Shown: piece after piece, positions 1 to 33,777 of the stretch
How the letters are laid out: each line of letters starts with the position of its first letter
Numbering within the stretch: position 1 is the first letter of the stretch
Assembly: GCA_964579955.1 (NCBI GenBank)
Contig: CAZOJA010000002.1
Location: 1-50,622 of the forward strand
Direction: 5' to 3'
From: an uncultured Veillonellaceae bacterium
GTDB lineage: Bacteria > Bacillota > Negativicutes > UBA1444
DNA: 50,622 bases
Made by a program: the position numbers and the translations under genes
Notes under the pieces: generated by a model
Databases searched by the model: none
The model's input: only the letters and a program-made list of their open reading frames with translations
Told to the model about the DNA's origin: nothing

Positions 1-52
1 CATCGACTCCCTGATTAAAAGTCAGGTGCTCTACCGACTGAGCTAGTGGGTC
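1..52 (-). tRNA. tRNA-Lys (anticodon UUU), 5' part only; the 3' end lies beyond the window edge
   Basis: Reverse complement of 1-52 reads GACCCAC-TA-GCTC-AGTCGGTA-GAGC-A-CCTGA-CTTTTAA-TCAGG-GAGTC-GATG. This gives an acceptor arm, D arm, anticodon stem with loop CU-UUU-AA, variable loop and the start of the T arm. Confidence 0.85.
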
Positions 53-25144: not shown

Positions 25145-27037
25145 TTATTCTGACAAGTTCTTTAATGCCGGGCCGGGGCGGCGTTGGTCGCCATCGCGAA
25201 CCGTATAATTATTAGCATCTAGGTATTCCATTAACGGGACCGCCATTCTACGCGATGTGTTCAACAAGTCACGTAATTCGCCCACACTCAGCGTTTGGTG
25301 CTCAGAAAAGTGACGTTGAATGATTGAGCCAATGTATTGCATTGTATTTCTGTATACGTGTACTCCGGCTATCCTGATAATCATTTTTTCTCGTATCATC
25401 CGTTCAAAAAACGGCTTGATTTCCTCCATGGACCGGTTCATTTTTTCAGCCAGCCACTGCGGCGAAAGATCGATCAGTTCATTTTGAGGCACAATTTTCT
25501 CCAGTTGCTTTTTCAAATCATCTGTATTTCCCCCATGCTTTCGGGCATGTGAAGGGCTGGCAACATATTCTCCCTGGATAACGCATACGCTCTGCGCTAC
25601 GCAGTCACTAACAAACCAGTCGAAAATCCGGGCTGCGATTTTTATTTTTTGTCGTAAAGTTTCTTTTGAAATTCCAGGCTCCGACGGTTTGTATCGATGG
25701 TAATCTTCCAGGCATCTTTTCAGGCTTTGCTTGAATTCAATCATCTGTTCCGCTGCAACATAATAGTTTCCGGCCATTTTCACTTTTCCCTGGTTCAGCA
25801 GCTCTTGAACTGCTTTTTTAACTTTTGCCGCCTCCACATATCCGGCGGTTTGTAGCCACTCCTGCAAGCTGGGCGGCTTTTTCATCAATAATAGTAGCAG
25901 TAACAGCGTTGTTTCTATGTCTTGCTGTTTGCACGCTTGCTCTAATTGCAGCAGTAATTCGGTCCGACGACTTCCACTGTCTGCAGGACACAAGAGCGTG
26001 ACTCCGCCAATCAAGTCTTGCGGTGAAAATCTCCGCAACAGCCCTTGGTCGCCAAAAGCAGCCGAAATTGGTTTTTCCATATGTAGACGAACCAAAACTG
26101 GCAACGGGGCATTTTCGTTTGATTTCCTGAAAGATAGTCTGCCGATGAATTCACCTGTTCCTTGATGTAGTCTGATCCGCGTCCCAGAGGCATATTCTTT
26201 TTTCCACTGAATTGTTGCATCCCACACTTCAGCAGTATGGCAATAGCCTTCTTCACTAAGAAACATTCCACGCCCGACTTCCGGGAGCGTTACTCCGGAC
26301 AGTTTCAGCGAGGCGCGCTGACCTGCGCCAACCAGCTCGCGTTCTTGATTGTGTGATTCAATCTCCCGCACTTTAACCGCCAGATTGGCCGGATAAAGGT
26401 GCAGACTGGCCCCTGTTACGACACTTCCAGTCATAACGGATCCTGTTACGATAAGCCCATGCCCCCTTAAGTTAAAAGACCGATCAATCCACATCCGAAA
26501 GGGAGCGTCCTTATTGCGTGGTGAGACATCCTTGGCGACCTGCAACAAGGTTTGTCTGAGCTTTTCTATTCCCTCCCCGGATAAAGCCGACACGGGGCAT
26601 ATCGGTGCTGTCGACAGGAACGAATCAGCCAGATAGTGCCGTATTTCTTCTTCCACTAAAGCCAACCAATCTGCTTCCACTTTGTCAATTTTACTGACAA
26701 CAACCAGACCAGCTCTAACACCCAGACAACGCAACATATCAAAATGTTCACGCGTCTGCGGCATAATGCCTTCATCTGCAGCGATAACCAGCATTACCAT
26801 GTCGATTGCGCCGGTTCCCGCCAGCATATTTTTCAAGAATCTCTCATGCCCCGGCACATCAACAATTCCCAGCGTCAATGTTTCAGGATAGTTCAAAGCG
26901 GCGAATCCGATATCAATTGAAATGCCACGTTCCTTTTCTTCCAGTAGCCGATCCGTGTCAGTTCCGGTTAACGCTTTGATTAGCGCGGTCTTTCCATGGT
27001 CAACATGTCCGGCAGTTCCGACAATCAAATGCTTCAT
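25145..27037 (-). CDS. selB: Selenocysteine-specific translation elongation factor SelB
   Basis: 630 aa with a GTPase N-terminus ([31 protein letters not shown]) and a long winged-helix C-terminal extension typical of SelB. Confidence 0.93.
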
Positions 27038-27039
27038 GC

Positions 27040-28446
27040 CTATTCACCTGATGCAATCCGTAATAGTCTGTCCGCGAGGATTGCAATATCTTCGGACATT
27101 AAGCAGCGAACATCAAAAATCAGAGCATTGTCCCTGACCAAGCATACGATAGGGGGGCGCCCCGCTCTTAGTTGTTTGGATACACGACTTGCTGTTTGCC
27201 CTGCAGTCTCCACTTCAACGCCAAAACCTGCAAACGAAACAGCAGGCAGGGAACCGCCTCCAGCAAGAGAACTTGTTTCTACGACCCTAACCCGTAAGCC
27301 TAAGCTTTCAGCCGGTCGAAGCAGGTCCGCCACCTGTATTGCCTTTTCCATTAGTCGCTGCTGCGAAACGTGCAACATCTGCCATACAGGAACGGTCGCG
27401 TTCGCTGCCCCCGTCGAATACTCTGTCAAAGTACCTTCCAGTGCTGCCAGTGATAATTTATCGATTCGTACCGCGCGCAGCAGCGGTTCTTTTTTCAAAG
27501 CAGAGATAAGCCCTTTTTTCCCGACGATTAATCCTGCCTGCCCGGCGCCTAACAGCTTATCGCCGCTGAAAGTAACAATGTCGAATCCCGCTGCTACACA
27601 CTCCTGCACTGTCGGTTCGTAGGCGCCTCCCACATTTACAGGTTGGAGAGTGCCACTTCCTAAATCATTTATCGCTACAAGACGATGCGCTGTCGCTAAA
27701 CGGCACAATTCTTCCATCGTGGGGGTCCCCGTAAATCCCTCTATCGAAAAATTGCTGGTGTGAACTTTCAATATCGCGGCTGTTGCCGGTGTAATCGCGG
27801 CTTCGTAGTCCTGTATGTGAGTCTTGTTGGTTGCACCGACTTCGACGAGTGTTGCTCCACTTTGTCTAATTACATCTGGTATTCTAAAAGAGCCTCCAAT
27901 TTCCACTAATTCACCACGACTAACGATCACTTCCCTGCCGCGGGCTATTCCTCCCAACACAAGCATTACCGCTGCCGCATTGTTGTTCACCACCAATGCG
28001 GCTTCTCCCCCCGTCAGCATCGTAAGGCGCTTTTCTACGTGACTGTAGCGTTCACCCCGCCCTCCGGATTCGAGGTCATACTCCAAAGTGCTGTATCCTT
28101 CCATTACTGCCTGAACACGAGCTCGCGCTCGCTCACATAGCGGTGCCCGTCCAAGGTTGGTATGCAATACAACGCCGGTGGCATTTATAACTTTTATTAG
28201 ACTTTGTTCTGAAAGCACCGCAGCTTTTTCATGGAACCGTTGAATAATCCAGCCTACCACAAGGTCTTCCGTGACCTCAGCAGCCGGTCCGCAATGCAGT
28301 ATATGCTGCCGAAAGTCAGCCACGGCGCTTCGTAACAGGGCAACTATATTCTCGTGATTCATCGGAACTTTGTCATATTCTTTCGTTACTTTCAGCGCAA
28401 GTTGTTCCACTGATGGAATTCGTCGAAATACTTCGTTTGTATTCAT
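27040..28446 (-). CDS. selA: L-seryl-tRNA(Sec) selenium transferase SelA
   Basis: SelA N-terminal motif RRIPSVEQL and the PLP-lysine region [19 protein letters not shown]. The preferred start is ATG 28446, with AGAGGGA 4 nt upstream. The ORF-track start at 28494 has no RBS. Confidence 0.92.
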
Positions 28447-28552
28447 TACGTCCCTCTTTCTTGTCTTTTTGTTCTTCATCACAGTGTTATTCATAGCTAT
28501 TTATTACTTTTAATAATTAGTCAGCTTGGCATCTTTTCCTCTAATTATTTTC

Positions 28553-28616: not shown

Positions 28617-28976
28617 CTAGTCAGGAGTTTGACGCATTTCACAGTTTCCTTTGAATACAGCACCCTCACCAATGATCAGCGTCCCAACCTTTAGGTCGCC
28701 GACGACTTTTGCCGAAGGCATTAGTTCCAGTTTGTCACGCACATCCATGTTTCCCGTTACTGCTCCAGCGATCATGGCATTTTTTGCACTAATGGTCGCT
28801 TTTACTTTGCCGGCTTCACCGATAATCAAATCGGCCGTTGTAGAAATCTCCCCTTCAAATTCGCCATCAATACGTAACGCTCCGTTTGAAGTCAAACTCC
28901 CTTTTAAGGATGTTGTATGGCCGATGAGCGTTTCAACCTGCTCAGAAAACTCTTCGTTTTTTTTTCGCCCGAACAT
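28617..28976 (-). CDS. Bactofilin (DUF583 polymer-forming cytoskeletal protein)
   Basis: 119 aa with a short basic N-terminus (MFGRKKNEE), then beta-helix repeats (GSLTSNGALRIDGEFEGEI, IGEAGKVKATISAKNAMIAGAVTGNM, VVGDLKVGTLIIGEGAVFKGN). Confidence 0.88.
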   Translation of the reverse strand: MFGRKKNEEFSEQVETLIGHTTSLKGSLTSNGALRIDGEFEGEISTTADLIIGEAGKVKATISAKNAMIAGAVTGNMDVRDKLELMPSAKVVGDLKVGTLIIGEGAVFKGNCEMRQTPD

Positions 28977-29021: not shown

Positions 29022-29933
29022 TCACATAAAACCGGCAGGATTGACTGCCGTACCATTGACTTTGACCTCATAATGAACGTGTGGTCCTGTACTGAAGCCC
29101 GAACTCCCCATATACGCAACCAATTGTCCTTTTTTCACTTTCTGACCGACGGAGACTACGTTTTCAGAATTATGAGCGTAGGAAGTTGTAATTCCATATC
29201 CATGGTCAATGACAACCTGGCGCCCATAGCCCCCGTTCCAGCCGCTTGCAACAATGACGCCATCTGCTGTTGCAACGATCGGGGTTCCCGTATCGGCAGC
29301 AACGTCAATCCCCGGATGCCAGTCCGAACCGCCCCACCGCCAGCCGAATCTTGAAGTGATAACGCCTTCACTTGGCCAGATTGATGGCGTTGCGGCAATT
29401 CTTGCATTCCTATCCACCAGACTCTGACGCAATTTGGCCAGGCTTTCTCCCCGAACTTTAGCACTGACTTGCAAATCTTTGACCAGATTCTGCAACTCTT
29501 CTGCGCTTGGCCGCACACTGGGTCCACCCTCGCCTGAGTGTGTCGCTCCAGGACGAACCACGCCCGACCTTGAAGTTCCTGCAGTTTCTTCTTTATTTAG
29601 CAGACGGCGAACTTCCGCATCAAGTTGGTTTAGTTTGGACATCTCTTCTTGAAGAATTGCTGTGTTTTTCGCAAGTTGATTCAACTGTCCTGCCTGGGCC
29701 AGATTAACCGTGCGCAATTTCTGAAGTTCATCCAGTTCTGCTTTTGCTTGATTAATTGTATATTGATAATGAAATAACCCGACCATGCTCACGATTACCA
29801 GCGCACCAGCCGTCGCGGCGCAGAACTTCACAAATCGAATCGGCATTTGGAATCGGTAGACTTTTTTCCCGCGATGAGGCACTATCATCAATGTGTAGTT
29901 TCTCTTATCTTCATTGGCAACTTTCTTTCTCAA
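29022..29933 (-). CDS. M23/LytM-family peptidoglycan metalloendopeptidase with N-terminal TM helix and coiled coil
   Basis: HPGIDVAADTGTPI and GPHVHYEV metal-binding motifs are intact. The preferred start is TTG 29933, with AAAGGAGG 6 nt upstream, giving MRKKVANEDKRNYTLMIVPH. The ORF-track start at 30161 overlaps the DUF4446 gene. Confidence 0.88.
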   Translation of the reverse strand: MRKKVANEDKRNYTLMIVPHRGKKVYRFQMPIRFVKFCAATAGALVIVSMVGLFHYQYTINQAKAELDELQKLRTVNLAQAGQLNQLAKNTAILQEEMSKLNQLDAEVRRLLNKEETAGTSRSGVVRPGATHSGEGGPSVRPSAEELQNLVKDLQVSAKVRGESLAKLRQSLVDRNARIAATPSIWPSEGVITSRFGWRWGGSDWHPGIDVAADTGTPIVATADGVIVASGWNGGYGRQVVIDHGYGITTSYAHNSENVVSVGQKVKKGQLVAYMGSSGFSTGPHVHYEVKVNGTAVNPAGFM

Positions 29934-30033
29934 ACCCAAGCCTCCTTTGGCACATTCGGTTATCAACCCATACCAAGCACTCACAGATATTCGCCGCGTT
30001 AGGCAAATTTCCTGCCAACGAGCGTGCCTGAAA

Positions 30034-30540
30034 TCATTTTTTTGTTGCAGCATCCAATGCCTGTCGTTCTTCCTTGGTAAGCATATACTTTGATTCGCCT
30101 GAAGTAATTGGTTTTGCATAAACCCGCGACTCTTCCCTACCATAAATGCCGGACAACACAACGCCGTTACGCTCTGCGTCTGTCATCGCCAAAGAAAAGC
30201 TTAGGTCTCCGCCGGTGTTTTCAAAAGCATTGAATCGGATCAATCCAAATCGCTGTAGATGTCGCAAGCTATCTTTGCTCATCTCTTGCTGGCGTTCTTG
30301 CAATGCACTGACACTCATTTTCAACGCTTCAATATCTTGAATCCGTCCTATCATCATTTGCTCGATGGACTGCCCATTGGCACCCTGCATCATTTTTTGA
30401 TAGGAGTTATTTAGGCGATGAAGTTTGATTGTCAAATACAGTGAAGACAACCCGAAAAACGTGGCTACAACCACCAGTGCAAAAGTCAGATGGGTTAGTT
30501 CGATTCCCGATAATGGTTTGATAATCGCGGACGCTTCCAT
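30034..30540 (-). CDS. DUF4446 family protein (TM helix, coiled coil and C-terminal domain)
   Basis: The preferred start is ATG 30540 (MEASAIIKP), with GAGAGGGGA 4 nt upstream. The motif FGLIRFNAFENTGGDLSFSLAMTD...GVVLSGIYGRE is typical of the family. Confidence 0.75.
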   Translation of the reverse strand: MEASAIIKPLSGIELTHLTFALVVVATFFGLSSLYLTIKLHRLNNSYQKMMQGANGQSIEQMMIGRIQDIEALKMSVSALQERQQEMSKDSLRHLQRFGLIRFNAFENTGGDLSFSLAMTDAERNGVVLSGIYGREESRVYAKPITSGESKYMLTKEERQALDAATKK

Positions 30541-30659
30541 TGTATCCCCTCTCGTCAATGTGAATGGCACGATACAGCCTGTTAATTTTACACCATATTC
30601 AGTTTACAGTTATCTCCAAAAGCTCCTTTTATCTTGTTAAATCGGTAGTATTCGCAAAT

Positions 30660-32009
30660 TTATTGTGTGCGCTGATCATCAAATTGACCTTCAGAGCACC
30701 CGGCAAAGAACAAGGTTTCGGCTTGCGCTTCATTTAGCAATTTCATCCGGACAACAACCGTCTTAACCGGCTTTGCAGTTAACGCCGAAATTCTAGCAAC
30801 CTGCACTGCGCGGTCATAACCGATTATTGGAATCAACTTTTCTGCTTGTAGCGGAGAGTTTTCCTGCAGTGCAGCTCCCATTTCCGGATTTCCTCGCAAC
30901 TCCATCAGGCATTGTTTTGTCAACATCTTTACAGCAACGGAACTATATCGCAGCGAGTCGATCAAGGCATTGGAAATCAGGTTGAAACTAAGCACGCCGC
31001 CAGAATCATGAATATTTAACGCAGCGGCGATCATTGCGTCATTTCCCACAACGACCACCGACATTTGACTGACCGTATCCAGTGCGATCATTTCCCTGCC
31101 GACAGGATTAAACACCTGACTGGGCAACTGGTTCGGCAAGTCAAGTTCCTTCCGCAATACAACAAGCCGCTTTAGCTCATTGCAAAACTGCAGCAGGAAT
31201 GTTGCCAGGTTTTTTAGCAATCCTGATAGTCCACTGTACAAAACGTCGTTGACAGGAAAATCTTTTTTTGAAGCATCATATTCAATTTCGATATCCAACA
31301 ACTCCTTTAAGCACGCCAGCACTTCCGGAGTTTCATTCCACAAGCGGCAGAGCTCCTTGCGATACCCAAACAGTTGTTGTTTGATAAAACTCAAACCGTC
31401 TGCACGACAGGAAAACACCTCTCCCAAACTATGTATTTTTATATCTTGATAATTAATTTGAGCAATCGAATTTTGTTCTTGCATAGCCAAGGCGTGGTTT
31501 CGCAGCCAATGAATCGCCTCGCCAAATTGTCCCGAAATTTCATCTAACATCTGTACGATCGTCACATGCAGCGCCATCAAACAAACGTTGTGATTGGAAA
31601 ACCCGGTATCCAATTGAAATAAACCTGCCAACCGGTGATATTCACCCCGCGGACGACCTTGCATTTCAAGCGCAACATTAGCCAGCACTTCGTCTACATT
31701 GACAACAAGGCTTCTTGCGCCTCCACCATGTGACACTCGCACTTTTATCTGTTCAGCAAAAAACTGTTCATTCGTCAACAATTGATTCGCCGCTGCCTGA
31801 ATCGATTCTGCAACCGTTGCATTCCACGCGCCATTTCGGCCAAATACCAGCGCCTGCGCCTGCCGAACCATTACGATATTGCGCAACAACAAGCTTGACA
31901 CTTCTGGACCAAACGAGCCCGCAACCGCCAATAGCCTCGCCGTCGAAATTCCATAATACTCTTCGGTCGATAATTGGAGAGTTCCAAGCGAATCCTGCTC
32001 TAGTCGCAT
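30660..32009 (-). CDS. Aspartase/fumarase (lyase class I) superfamily homologue with degenerate catalytic motifs (probable pseudoenzyme)
   Basis: 449 aa with a fumarase/aspartase-like N-terminus (MRLEQDSLGTLQLSTEEYYGISTAR) and GGGARSLVVNVDEVLANVALE. The three catalytic signatures are altered or shortened (see findings). Confidence 0.7.
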   Translation of the reverse strand: MRLEQDSLGTLQLSTEEYYGISTARLLAVAGSFGPEVSSLLLRNIVMVRQAQALVFGRNGAWNATVAESIQAAANQLLTNEQFFAEQIKVRVSHGGGARSLVVNVDEVLANVALEMQGRPRGEYHRLAGLFQLDTGFSNHNVCLMALHVTIVQMLDEISGQFGEAIHWLRNHALAMQEQNSIAQINYQDIKIHSLGEVFSCRADGLSFIKQQLFGYRKELCRLWNETPEVLACLKELLDIEIEYDASKKDFPVNDVLYSGLSGLLKNLATFLLQFCNELKRLVVLRKELDLPNQLPSQVFNPVGREMIALDTVSQMSVVVVGNDAMIAAALNIHDSGGVLSFNLISNALIDSLRYSSVAVKMLTKQCLMELRGNPEMGAALQENSPLQAEKLIPIIGYDRAVQVARISALTAKPVKTVVVRMKLLNEAQAETLFFAGCSEGQFDDQRTQ

Positions 32010-32025
32010 TTTCCCCTCACACTCA

Positions 32026-32937
32026 TCAGACAGTCAACTTGCCGGACCGACGTTTTTGCTGTCGTTTTGACACCTCTTCCACGCCCGATAAGCATTCATA
32101 AACACGTTGCAATTCTTCAGCAGAATAACATTCAATCACAATGGTACCACCGCCATTTTCTCTTGCCACAATCTGAACTTTCGTACCAAGCAGAAGACCC
32201 AGTTTAGATTCGGCCTCATCGCAGGCTGCATCGACAGTCCTGCCCTTTCTTTTTTGTTCTGCGTCAATTTGTTTTTTATTTTGCATTTTTTTCGCAAGTT
32301 CTTCTGCGCCACGGGCTGTCAGAGCACGCGACACAATCTCCTTCGCGGCTTCAACTTGCAGCGTCGCAGTCGGCAGCACCAGCAACGGTCGCGCCTGTCC
32401 CGGACTCATTGTTCCACGTGAAACATATTCTTGCACCGTCGGTGGCAAGTTTAGCAGTCGAACGGTATTTGCAATAAAAGGTCGACTCTTACCGACCTTT
32501 TCTGACAACTCCTCCTGCGTAAACCCAAACTCATCAATTAATCTTCGATAAGCTATTGCTTCTTCAATCGGATTTAAATTCTCTCGTTGCAAGTTTTCTA
32601 CTAAAGCAACTGCATTCATTTCAACATCGGAATAATCACGAAGAACAGCGGGTATTTCTCTCAATCCGACAAGCTGTGACGCTCGCAAACGCCGCTCTCC
32701 GGTAACCAGTTGGTATCCGGTACCACTCGTTCGAACTACAACTGGCTGTAATACGCCATACAAACGGATAGAGGAGGCCAAATCCTCAAGACGCTCTGGG
32801 TCAAACTCACGCCGTGGTTGAAATGGATTGGGAGAAATGTCTTTAACCGGAAGCAGCATTAGACTTTCTCCGCGTTCAAAATCGCGATCCCCTGACAGAA
32901 GCGCGTCGAGCCCTCGTCCCAATCCGCGCTTATTCAT
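32026..32937 (-). CDS. parB: Chromosome partitioning protein ParB/Spo0J
   Basis: 303 aa with GLGRGLDALL, NPFQPRREF, LQPVVVR and GERRLRAS motifs. It contains a perfect parS. Confidence 0.95.
   Translation of the reverse strand: MNKRGLGRGLDALLSGDRDFERGESLMLLPVKDISPNPFQPRREFDPERLEDLASSIRLYGVLQPVVVRTSGTGYQLVTGERRLRASQLVGLREIPAVLRDYSDVEMNAVALVENLQRENLNPIEEAIAYRRLIDEFGFTQEELSEKVGKSRPFIANTVRLLNLPPTVQEYVSRGTMSPGQARPLLVLPTATLQVEAAKEIVSRALTARGAEELAKKMQNKKQIDAEQKRKGRTVDAACDEAESKLGLLLGTKVQIVARENGGGTIVIECYSAEELQRVYECLSGVEEVSKRQQKRRSGKLTV
32410..32425. promoter_or_regulatory. parS: parS centromere site (perfect match to TGTTNCACGTGAAACA)
   Basis: TGTTCCACGTGAAACA lies inside the parB coding region. Bacillus subtilis also has a parS inside spo0J. 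Confidence 0.85.
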
Positions 32938-33691
32938 CGCCCATCACCTCTTTTGCCAAATCCAAGTATACTTCGGCGCCCCTTGATTTAGGATCATATT
33001 GCATGATCGGTTTGCCATGACTCGGCGCTTCACTCAAACGAATGTTACGCGGAATAATAGTTCGATATACTTTATTGCGAAAATGATTTTTCACTTCATC
33101 AACAACTTGAATCGACAAATTGGTGCGCGCATCAAACATGGTTAATACAACACCTTCGAGCTGCAATGCCGGATTTAGGTTCTTTTGTACCAATCCTACG
33201 GTACGCATCAATTGCGATAATCCCTCTAGTGCGTAAAACTCACATTGAATCGGCACCAGCACAGAGGTTGCAGCGGTTAAAGCATTGATTGTCAACAACC
33301 CCAAAGAAGGAGGACAATCCATAATTACATAATCATAACGATACTTAATCTTTTCAAGTGATCGCTTTAACATATTCTCTCTGGCCAATACCGAAACCAA
33401 TTCGACTTCGGCGCCAGCCAATTGAATGGTTGCCGGCAGAAGGTGTAATCTTTCAACTTTACTAGGACGAATCACTTCCTCCATCGCAATATCATTAACC
33501 AAACAATCATATATGCATCGCTTGACCGCAGACTTGTCAACACCCAATCCACTCGTTGAATTCCCCTGAGGATCCACATCGATCAACAACACATTCGCAC
33601 CTAATTGTGCAAGTCCCGAGCTCAAATTGACGGCTGTCGTCGTTTTTCCGACACCGCCTTTCTGATTTGCGATTGCGATTACCTTAACCAA
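32930..33691 (-). CDS. parA: Chromosome partitioning ATPase ParA/Soj
   Basis: Deviant Walker A IANQKGGVGKTTTAVN. The preferred start is TTG 33691 (MVKVIAIANQKGG, 253 aa like Bacillus Soj), with a GGGTGGGGTGG purine tract upstream. The ORF-track start at 33727 coincides with a TATAAT box. Confidence 0.93.
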   Translation of the reverse strand: MVKVIAIANQKGGVGKTTTAVNLSSGLAQLGANVLLIDVDPQGNSTSGLGVDKSAVKRCIYDCLVNDIAMEEVIRPSKVERLHLLPATIQLAGAEVELVSVLARENMLKRSLEKIKYRYDYVIMDCPPSLGLLTINALTAATSVLVPIQCEFYALEGLSQLMRTVGLVQKNLNPALQLEGVVLTMFDARTNLSIQVVDEVKNHFRNKVYRTIIPRNIRLSEAPSHGKPIMQYDPKSRGAEVYLDLAKEVMGDE

Positions 33692-33726
33692 AACGCCACC
33701 CCACCCATAAATCATTTTGCTAGACA

Positions 33727-33732
33727 ATTATA
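33727..33732 (-). promoter_or_regulatory. Possible -10 box (TATAAT) of a parA promoter
   Basis: The minus strand has TATAAT about 36 nt upstream of the TTG start. The -35 region is weak (TGGATT) and lies immediately downstream of the parS-like site. Confidence 0.4.
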
Positions 33733-33761: not shown

Positions 33762-33777
33762 TGTTTCACATGAAACA
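33762..33777. promoter_or_regulatory. parS: parS-like site, one mismatch from consensus
   Basis: TGTTTCACATGAAACA versus TGTTNCACGTGAAACA. It sits in the noc-parA intergenic region. Confidence 0.7.

Follow-up and report, generated by a model that had tools for sequence, protein, structure and literature searches.

Why is a gene for an aspartase-like protein located third after parA and parB? This question is raised by a stretch of 50,622 nucleotides from an uncultured Veillonellaceae bacterium (contig CAZOJA010000002.1), which was analysed as a whole and is called the window below. The gene is designated LYL, and its product has 449 residues. In a sequence-only reading of the window, the product was taken for a dead lyase fold of the fumarase/aspartase superfamily, recruited to a structural or regulatory role. 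The first part of this claim is upheld here, as the catalytic positions are lost, whereas the recruitment is not established. We consider it very probable that LYL is a dead lyase fold kept by selection.

The assignment to the superfamily was examined at the levels of sequence and structure. A phmmer search against the sequences of the PDB gave AspA from E. coli (1jsw) as the best match with an E-value of 2.4e-26; the next matches were further aspartases and fumarases of class II. The NCBIfam aspartate ammonia-lyase model PRK12273 scores LYL with 152 bits against a cutoff of 510 bits, and TIGR00839 scores it with 115 bits against a cutoff of 681 bits. The fumC models give about 80 bits, and the aspA models give about twice that score; therefore, LYL is by sequence score nearer to aspartase than to fumarase, yet far outside either family. 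The Pfam scan of LYL gave no Lyase_1 match whatever, and the FumaraseC_C score of 29.8 bits is under the gathering score of 32.5 bits. Neither of the two Pfam models which the sequence-only reading had proposed for a search thus reaches its threshold; the homology found by phmmer is significant.

The AlphaFold2 (AF2) model of LYL, calculated with an alignment of 43 family sequences, has a predicted local distance difference test (pLDDT) score of 89 and a predicted template-modelling (TM) score of 0.85. Outside the tail, the weakest stretch of the model is residues 291–310, the former SS loop, with pLDDT values of 62–73. In Foldseek comparisons, the model is superposed on AspA, AspB, FumC and human FH over the full length (about 455 aligned columns), with TM scores of 0.81–0.87 and sequence identities of 18–23%; against AspA/FumC, the TM score is 0.85 and the identity 20–23%. 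According to the model, LYL has the three-domain, mostly helical fold of aspartases and fumarases with a central bundle of long helices. The helical bundle which builds the tetramer is predicted to be intact, and we infer that the tetramer is retained.

The active site was compared with that of the aspartase AspB, whose residue roles were taken from PMC11744663 and from general knowledge of the superfamily. The AspB residues were mapped onto LYL by HMMER and MAFFT alignments, and each position was tabulated in 47 family members. As aligned, none of the 11 catalytic or substrate-binding positions of AspB is kept by the LYL family: eight of them are hypervariable, and at the other three a non-canonical residue has become fixed. 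AspB Thr101 corresponds to Arg99 of LYL, a position with Arg or Lys in 46 of the 47 members. Ser140 and Thr141 correspond to Ser138 and Asn139 (ten different residues each), and Asn142 corresponds to His140 (mostly Leu or Gln); taken together, these three positions hold 8–10 different residues each. The position of Thr187 (Ile185 of LYL) is variable, and that of His188 (Asn186) is Gln, Asn, His, Asp or Ser. The catalytic base Ser318 corresponds to Gln298, where Pro is found in 27 members, Gln in six, Thr in five, Tyr in four and Ser in three, and His and Asp also occur. Its neighbour Ser319 corresponds to Val299 (Ala, Val or Pro in 40 of 47, with Ser, Asp and Phe also occurring). Met321 is replaced by Asn301 (Asn or Ser in the family), Lys324 by Gly304 (never Lys), and Asn326 by Glu306 (Glu or Asp in all members).

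The same erosion is visible in the signature motifs. LYL has GFSNHNVCLMA where the enzymes have xQSTNDxxPTA, IAQINYQDIKI where they have xGRT[HQ]LQDAxP, and PSQVFNPVGRE where they have GSSIMPGKVNP; at the last site, the family consensus is xxxxF[NS]Pxxx[ED]. The motifs quoted in the sequence-only reading (the N-terminal block, GFSNHNVCLMA, AQINYQDIKI and the FNP region) are all found in LYL, GGGARSLVVNVDEVLAN among them. That reading described the SS loop as lacking both Ser and Lys, which is correct, and as about five residues shorter, which is not: the loop has the canonical length, and a deletion of four residues is located just upstream of it (GPRxGLxE becomes xxKE). F300-N301-P302 is aligned with I-M-P and not with V-N-P by both HMMER and MAFFT. 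Instead of the catalytic residues, the loop remnant conserves F300, N/S301, P302, E/D306 and D311. Two further changes had been missed, namely the replacement of Thr101 by Arg or Lys and a deletion of 10–14 residues in the family which removes the conserved GGTA[IV]GTGLN loop. Around Arg99, in residues 94–111, E107 is the same in all family members, and G95–G97, N104, D106 and N111 vary very little.

Catalytic residues conserved at shifted positions were sought as a refutation of these assignments and were not found. The two alignment methods agree, and most of the former catalytic positions vary freely within the family; therefore, a simple register shift is ruled out. The loss is also not a drift of the whole genome, as had been argued from PurB: PurB in the same window (around 1918, minus strand) keeps GSSAMPHKRNP, whereas the loss is common to the whole LYL family.

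The gene is nevertheless maintained. The LYL open reading frame (ORF) is unbroken in all the loci examined, even at 27% identity, and the full-length members have 429–455 residues. In two loci (L009 and L012) the frame seems to be interrupted, but the interruptions are stretches of N in the scaffolds, so that pseudogenisation there is ruled out. Synonymous divergence (dS) between loci is saturated, and the ratio of nonsynonymous divergence (dN) to dS is only roughly bounded at 0.05–0.3; dN is well below dS. Judged from these comparisons of sequences, LYL is kept by purifying selection.

The pattern of this selection differs from that in the enzymes. The mean frequency of the majority residue in the family is 0.64 in domain D1 (residues 1–135), 0.55 in D2 (136–384) and 0.80 in D3 (385–435), and the corresponding values in five canonical enzymes are 0.64, 0.61 and 0.60. 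D3 is thus the most conserved domain of LYL, which is the reverse of the canonical pattern. Fifteen residues are invariant in the 47 sequences, and nine of them are located in D3 (A389, L392, G397, Q403, V404, A405, T411, V418 and K423). In the helix 398–411, nearly all residues are fixed, on every face. In the AspB tetramer, each C-terminal domain lies alongside the SS loop of an adjacent subunit and holds the open loop through I406, Y418, A421, A422, A425 and Y429 (PMC11744663). The D3 equivalents of these contacts in LYL are P386, Y398, A401, V402, A405 and A409, with conservation in 42 or more of the 47 members at every one of these positions.

The LYL family is small. A word-indexed search of 5.8 billion proteins gave 44 clusters at E-values of 1e-66 or lower, followed by a sharp gap to the canonical enzymes at 1e-20. 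An exhaustive profile search of 1.84 billion representatives at 50% identity gave only about nine family representatives. Three of these (P0205, P0206 and P0208) are more divergent, and P0208 is 27% identical to LYL, no closer than a true aspartase. The next matches inspected (P0209–P0211) retain the canonical catalytic motifs. The representative library also contains P0207 (1420 residues), which is not a member of the family. Read by eye, P0207 apparently has two tandem aspartase modules split by cyclic-nucleotide-binding-like regions; the first module keeps GSSIMPGKVNP, and the second has a partly degenerate SS loop, QTSLIPGKNDP. All members come from metagenomes or metagenome-assembled genomes (MAGs) labelled Negativicutes, Sporomusaceae or 'uncultured Veillonellaceae'. 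A 99%-identical copy of LYL is present in a wastewater metagenome; this strain has four nucleotide differences, three of them non-synonymous, too few to inform on selection.

In public databases, the members are named 'aspartate ammonia-lyase' (IMG) or 'hypothetical protein' (NCBI). The IMG label is carried by P0003, P0008, P0016, P0024, P0349 and P0363. Because all catalytic residues are lost, the aspartase name is very likely a misannotation. The sequence-only reading knew of no earlier description, and our literature searches on pseudo-aspartases, DUF4446 and parB with aspartase likewise found none of the LYL family. No mention of DUF4446 was found in the literature searched, and a survey of ParB partners in P. 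aeruginosa includes neither aspartase nor fumarase.

The position of the gene was compared in 13 GTDB genome loci, 11 further metagenome loci and seven contigs found by exact protein look-up. Every member with readable flanks (about 30 loci) is located directly 3' of parB and/or directly 5' of a DUF4446–M23 peptidase–bactofilin string. This context also holds for the most divergent members P0043, P0206 and P0208. Orthologues scattered in metabolic operons would have spoken against the sequence-only reading; in these loci there are none, and the orthologues always stand by parB. The linkage to parB is thus 100% in about 30 loci, but these represent a single clade in which the block is syntenic, and the slot is variable in outgroups.

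The spacing is also conserved. LYL starts 12–19 nucleotides past the parB stop codon in 14 of 15 loci measured, with a purine-rich stretch resembling a ribosome-binding site (RBS) in most of them; in the one deviating locus, L008, parB seems to be frameshifted. The coupling persists between members which are only 27–36% identical. The gap of 16 nucleotides described earlier for the window is confirmed, as is the common direction of LYL and its neighbours, whose strand, unstated at the time, is minus. A consensus scan for terminators and promoters between 28.4 and 35.6 kb gave no terminator-like site in the parB–LYL spacer, and the counts did not exceed those of shuffled sequences. The same scan scored the parS site TGTTTCACATGAAACA as a 'terminator-like' hairpin.

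On the other side of LYL, the spacer to the DUF4446 gene has 68–145 nucleotides across the loci and contains a conserved, promoter-like element, ..TGGACATAAtTGTAAA..aTGGTGTAAAATtA.., which is kept in most of the 14 loci aligned (spacers of L001–L017). The element may act as a promoter. Its fit to the standard −35/−10 spacing is poor, so that an alternative sigma factor or a regulator might bind there. The simplest operon model would consist of a parA–parB–LYL unit and a separate DUF4446–M23–bactofilin unit: with the promoter-like element between LYL and the DUF4446 gene, LYL would belong to parAB rather than to the genes of the envelope.

The coordinates of the features are collected in the following table.

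Features of the LYL locus, with positions counted from the first nucleotide of the window
Feature	Position	Strand	Basis or remark
LYL coding sequence, aspartase-like pseudoenzyme, 449 residues	30660..32009	minus	ATG ORF, AspA/FumC homology, AF2 model and Foldseek
LYL residues 94–111, HGGGARSLVVNVDEVLAN, counterpart of the QGGAGTSxNMNxNEVIAN loop and helix	31677..31730	minus	Thr101 replaced by Arg99
LYL residues 136–145, GFSNHNVCLM, former C1 signature (SxSTND)	31575..31604	minus	hypervariable
LYL residues 296–311, PSQVFNPVGREMIALD, former SS loop (GSSIMPGKVNP)	31077..31124	minus	without catalytic Ser or Lys
LYL residues 386–424, D3 motif PLQAEKLIPxxGY[DE]RAVQVARI[SA]ALTxKPVxxVVxxMKL	30738..30854	minus	
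parB, spo0J-type	32026..32937	minus	ParB_N, HTH_ParB and ParB_C domains
parA/soj	32930..33727	minus	ORF; homologues with ParA/CbiA Pfam families
parB–LYL spacer, 16 nucleotides, RBS GAGGGG	32010..32025	minus	
LYL–DUF4446 spacer, 119 nucleotides, conserved promoter-like element ..TGGAGATAACTGTAAA..ATGGTGTAAAATTA.., RBS AGGGG	30541..30659	minus	
DUF4446 gene, 168 residues	30034..30540	minus	likely true start ATG at 30540, as in homologues
M23 peptidase gene, 303 residues	29022..29933	minus	start as called in L042
Bactofilin gene	28617..28976	minus	
parS site TGTTCCACGTGAAACA in parB	32410..32425	unstranded	some 400 bp 5' of the LYL start
parS site TGTTTCACATGAAACA upstream of parA	33762..33777	unstranded	

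LYL is part of a co-directional string of mnmG, rsmG, a noc-like ParB gene, parA, parB, LYL, the DUF4446 gene, the M23 peptidase gene, the bactofilin gene, selA and selB. The two parS sites are located 0.4 and 1.75 kb upstream of LYL; each has one mismatch to the consensus, and no match is expected by chance. On the opposite strand, a few kb away, the ORFs have the order and lengths expected of dnaA, dnaN, recF, gyrB and gyrA (read by order and size). Therefore, the region is the oriC-proximal part of a Firmicutes-type chromosome. The mechanical ORF calls start too far upstream for the DUF4446 gene (30034–30570) and the M23 peptidase gene (29022–30161), and their overlap is an artefact. The genes selA and selB (25145–28494) are located directly 3' of the bactofilin gene and are linked to the block in all related loci, as well as in two of the three outgroup loci. 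The sole Rfam match in a scan of the whole window is a truncated tRNA at its edge (1–52, minus strand).

We propose the following explanation. A copy of an AspA-type aspartase would have entered the slot between parB and the DUF4446 gene in the ancestor of a narrow, uncultured Negativicutes clade. The copy would then have lost its composite active site and have been kept since as a non-catalytic protein. From the spacing and the RBS, LYL would be translated as the third cistron of the parA–parB transcript. Selection would hold the C-terminal domain, the SS-loop remnant (F-N-P...E/D) and the basic residue at the Thr101 position, and no substrate pocket. The once mobile catalytic loop would be fixed against D3, so that every corner of the tetramer would carry a conserved composite surface, and R/K99 and E/D306 may be paired where the substrate carboxylates once bound. 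This surface may be a multivalent docking site for a partner; the D3 helix is conserved all round, which suggests an external partner beyond internal packing. The partner may plausibly belong to the machinery which partitions or organises the origin, because LYL appears to be co-expressed with ParA and ParB beside two parS sites near oriC; this is guessed only from where the gene is located. We give a probability of roughly 0.55 to this reading of LYL as a lineage-specific, aspartase-derived pseudoenzyme which is non-catalytic, has its SS loop frozen onto D3 as a docking surface and is made together with ParAB.

Several observations weigh against this reading. In the nearest genomes without the family, which were reached through the DUF4446 protein (L018, L019 and L020), the slot between parB and the DUF4446 gene holds unrelated genes or almost nothing. 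The slot of L018 (4014–5964) contains genes for the hydrogenase maturation GTPase HydF and a DUF554 membrane protein. L020 (590–2542) has the same two genes before the DUF4446 gene, preceded by a partial ParB-like ORF at the contig edge. The slot of L019 (3719–6000) is 2.3 kb long and has only one ORF of 104 residues; neither N stretches nor any similarity to LYL are found in it. No LYL remnant was found by tblastn in L018–L020, including the 2.3-kb gap of L019. Thus the slot accepts unrelated genes, and the DUF4446–M23–bactofilin string exists independently of LYL. The promoter-like element sets LYL apart from this string as well. Moreover, the whole block of about 12 kb from mnmG to selB is syntenic across this narrow clade; therefore, position alone says little, and the constant place of LYL may reflect inheritance and not function. 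LYL is also the fastest-evolving gene of the block, with the highest dN (0.56, against 0.32 for parB and 0.09 for parA) and a median amino-acid identity of 42% (63% for parB and 88% for parA). The conservation of D3 and the loop remnant might be due to nothing more than packing within the tetramer. Finally, LYL is acidic (isoelectric point about 5.3) and has no DNA-binding signature. The net charge of D3 is +1 to +3, against about −5 to 0 in the enzymes; DNA binding was considered on this ground and was found unconvincing for a protein which is acidic overall.

A role in segregation is plausible; the sole argument for it is the operon-like coupling to parAB, which is confounded by the clade-wide synteny and the variable slot. 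A ParABS-linked role of LYL is accordingly put forward here as a tentative suggestion. A more specific form of it, in which LYL, produced from the parAB transcript close to parS, would be a tetravalent adaptor whose four invariant D3/loop surfaces bind ParB or ParA and cross-link or anchor partition complexes, possibly to the membrane protein DUF4446 and to bactofilin/M23, is improbable at present.

In the first rival explanation, LYL is a dead aspartase paralogue with a role unrelated to ParABS, inserted once amid frozen synteny. Such a protein could be a prozyme-like partner which co-assembles with or titrates a true aspartase or fumarase, or a metabolite sensor. The variable outgroup slot (HydF–DUF554 or a nearly empty 2.3 kb), the synteny of the entire 12-kb block and the narrowness of the family all agree with it. 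Mixed tetramers are structurally conceivable, as the active sites of the superfamily are built from three subunits (PMC11744663). However, a bystander of parB would not be expected to keep a coupling of 12–19 nucleotides, with an RBS-like stretch in most loci, between members of 27–36% identity. The helical-bundle domain, which would need to fit a canonical partner, shows the lowest conservation, and the loss of all substrate-binding residues speaks against a dicarboxylate sensor. We regard this explanation as doubtful but possible.

The second rival explanation, that LYL is an enzyme with a new reaction, is quite unlikely. That the canonical residues are missing is, taken alone, no proof that LYL catalyses nothing at all, and this too counts against a non-catalytic reading. 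A handful of conserved residues around the former site (R/K99, Q188, F300, N/S301, P302, E/D306 and D311) could form a rebuilt site, and the superfamily is known to have evolved unusual chemistries (PMC13411527, PMC11880804 and PMC9457059), such as those of nitrosuccinate lyase and trans-aconitate decarboxylase. No candidate for a general base or acid is conserved, however, and the position of Ser318 is Pro in the majority of members. The C1 and C2 positions are hypervariable, which argues against conserved new chemistry at the old site, and two loops near the site are deleted. In addition, the strongest constraint is in D3, away from the chemistry, and the gene has no metabolic context. A third explanation, that LYL is a functionless relic aspartase becoming a pseudogene, has in its favour the fast evolution of LYL and the three non-synonymous changes in the wastewater strain, numbers too small to mean anything, and is effectively excluded by ORFs of constant length without frameshift or stop codon down to 27% identity, a nearly invariant segment of 40 residues, the conserved RBS and spacing, and the confident AF2 model.

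Returning to the reading of LYL as a non-catalytic, aspartase-derived protein, comparison with known systems shows what is shared and what is not. The closest sequence relatives are AspA of E. coli (1JSW) and AspB of Bacillus sp. YM55-1 (1J3U/3R6V), which have the same full-length three-domain fold. LYL shares with the aspartases the N-terminal motifs MRxExDxLG, GxxTxR, GG..S..N..EVLAN and GEY. It differs from them in the 11 lost positions, in the deletion of the GGTAxGTG loop and of four residues before the SS loop, in scores below the NCBIfam cutoffs, in D3 being the most conserved domain, and in a gene context of parAB instead of metabolism.

Pseudoenzymes are well known in eukaryotes, and delta-crystallin is the textbook case of this superfamily. 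Delta-1 crystallin, from the same superfamily as argininosuccinate lyase, has kept the fold and the oligomer for a non-catalytic role. It is a recent duplicate in birds and reptiles, highly similar to the active lyase, and most of its active-site residues are kept. LYL, in contrast, is a bacterial protein of aspartase origin whose identity to any enzyme is only about 25% and whose active site is obliterated. In another case, the role of class II fumarase in the DNA damage response depends on the enzymatic activity and on the metabolites fumarate and L-malate. LYL differs from this case in having no catalytic residues and in being linked to parAB and not to repair. What is similar is the fold and a tie to chromosomal DNA processes, which has been described for class II fumarase in B. 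subtilis, yeast and human (PMC13655608).

With respect to the neighbours, bactofilins are known to position ParABS (PMC5703909), and PadC with BacNOP in Myxococcus xanthus is an example of the accessory proteins of such systems. M23–bactofilin is a known conserved module (PMC10945521), for example BacA–LmdC. The LYL gene is found between parAB and such an M23–bactofilin pair. Neither in sequence nor in fold, however, is LYL related to PadC or to another known partner of ParB. The DUF4446–M23–bactofilin string occurs elsewhere without LYL and appears to have its own promoter.

As judged from sequence, what is new here would be the LYL family within a superfamily already known for pseudoenzymes, in a host range which is narrow and uncultured. 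To our knowledge, bacterial pseudoenzymes with a defined cellular role are few. The LYL family is a clean case: nothing of the active site is left, the fold persists, selective constraint has shifted to the small C-terminal domain, and near oriC the gene keeps its place as the third member of parAB. The misannotation as aspartase would put a false aspartase into metabolic reconstructions of these MAGs. If it is true that LYL works with ParABS, LYL would be a new kind of accessory factor in a heavily studied system, and would give the first functional handle on the DUF4446–M23–bactofilin string 3' of parB in the related genomes examined. If the adaptor reading is true, LYL would be the first metabolic-enzyme fold recruited as a structural part of bacterial chromosome segregation.

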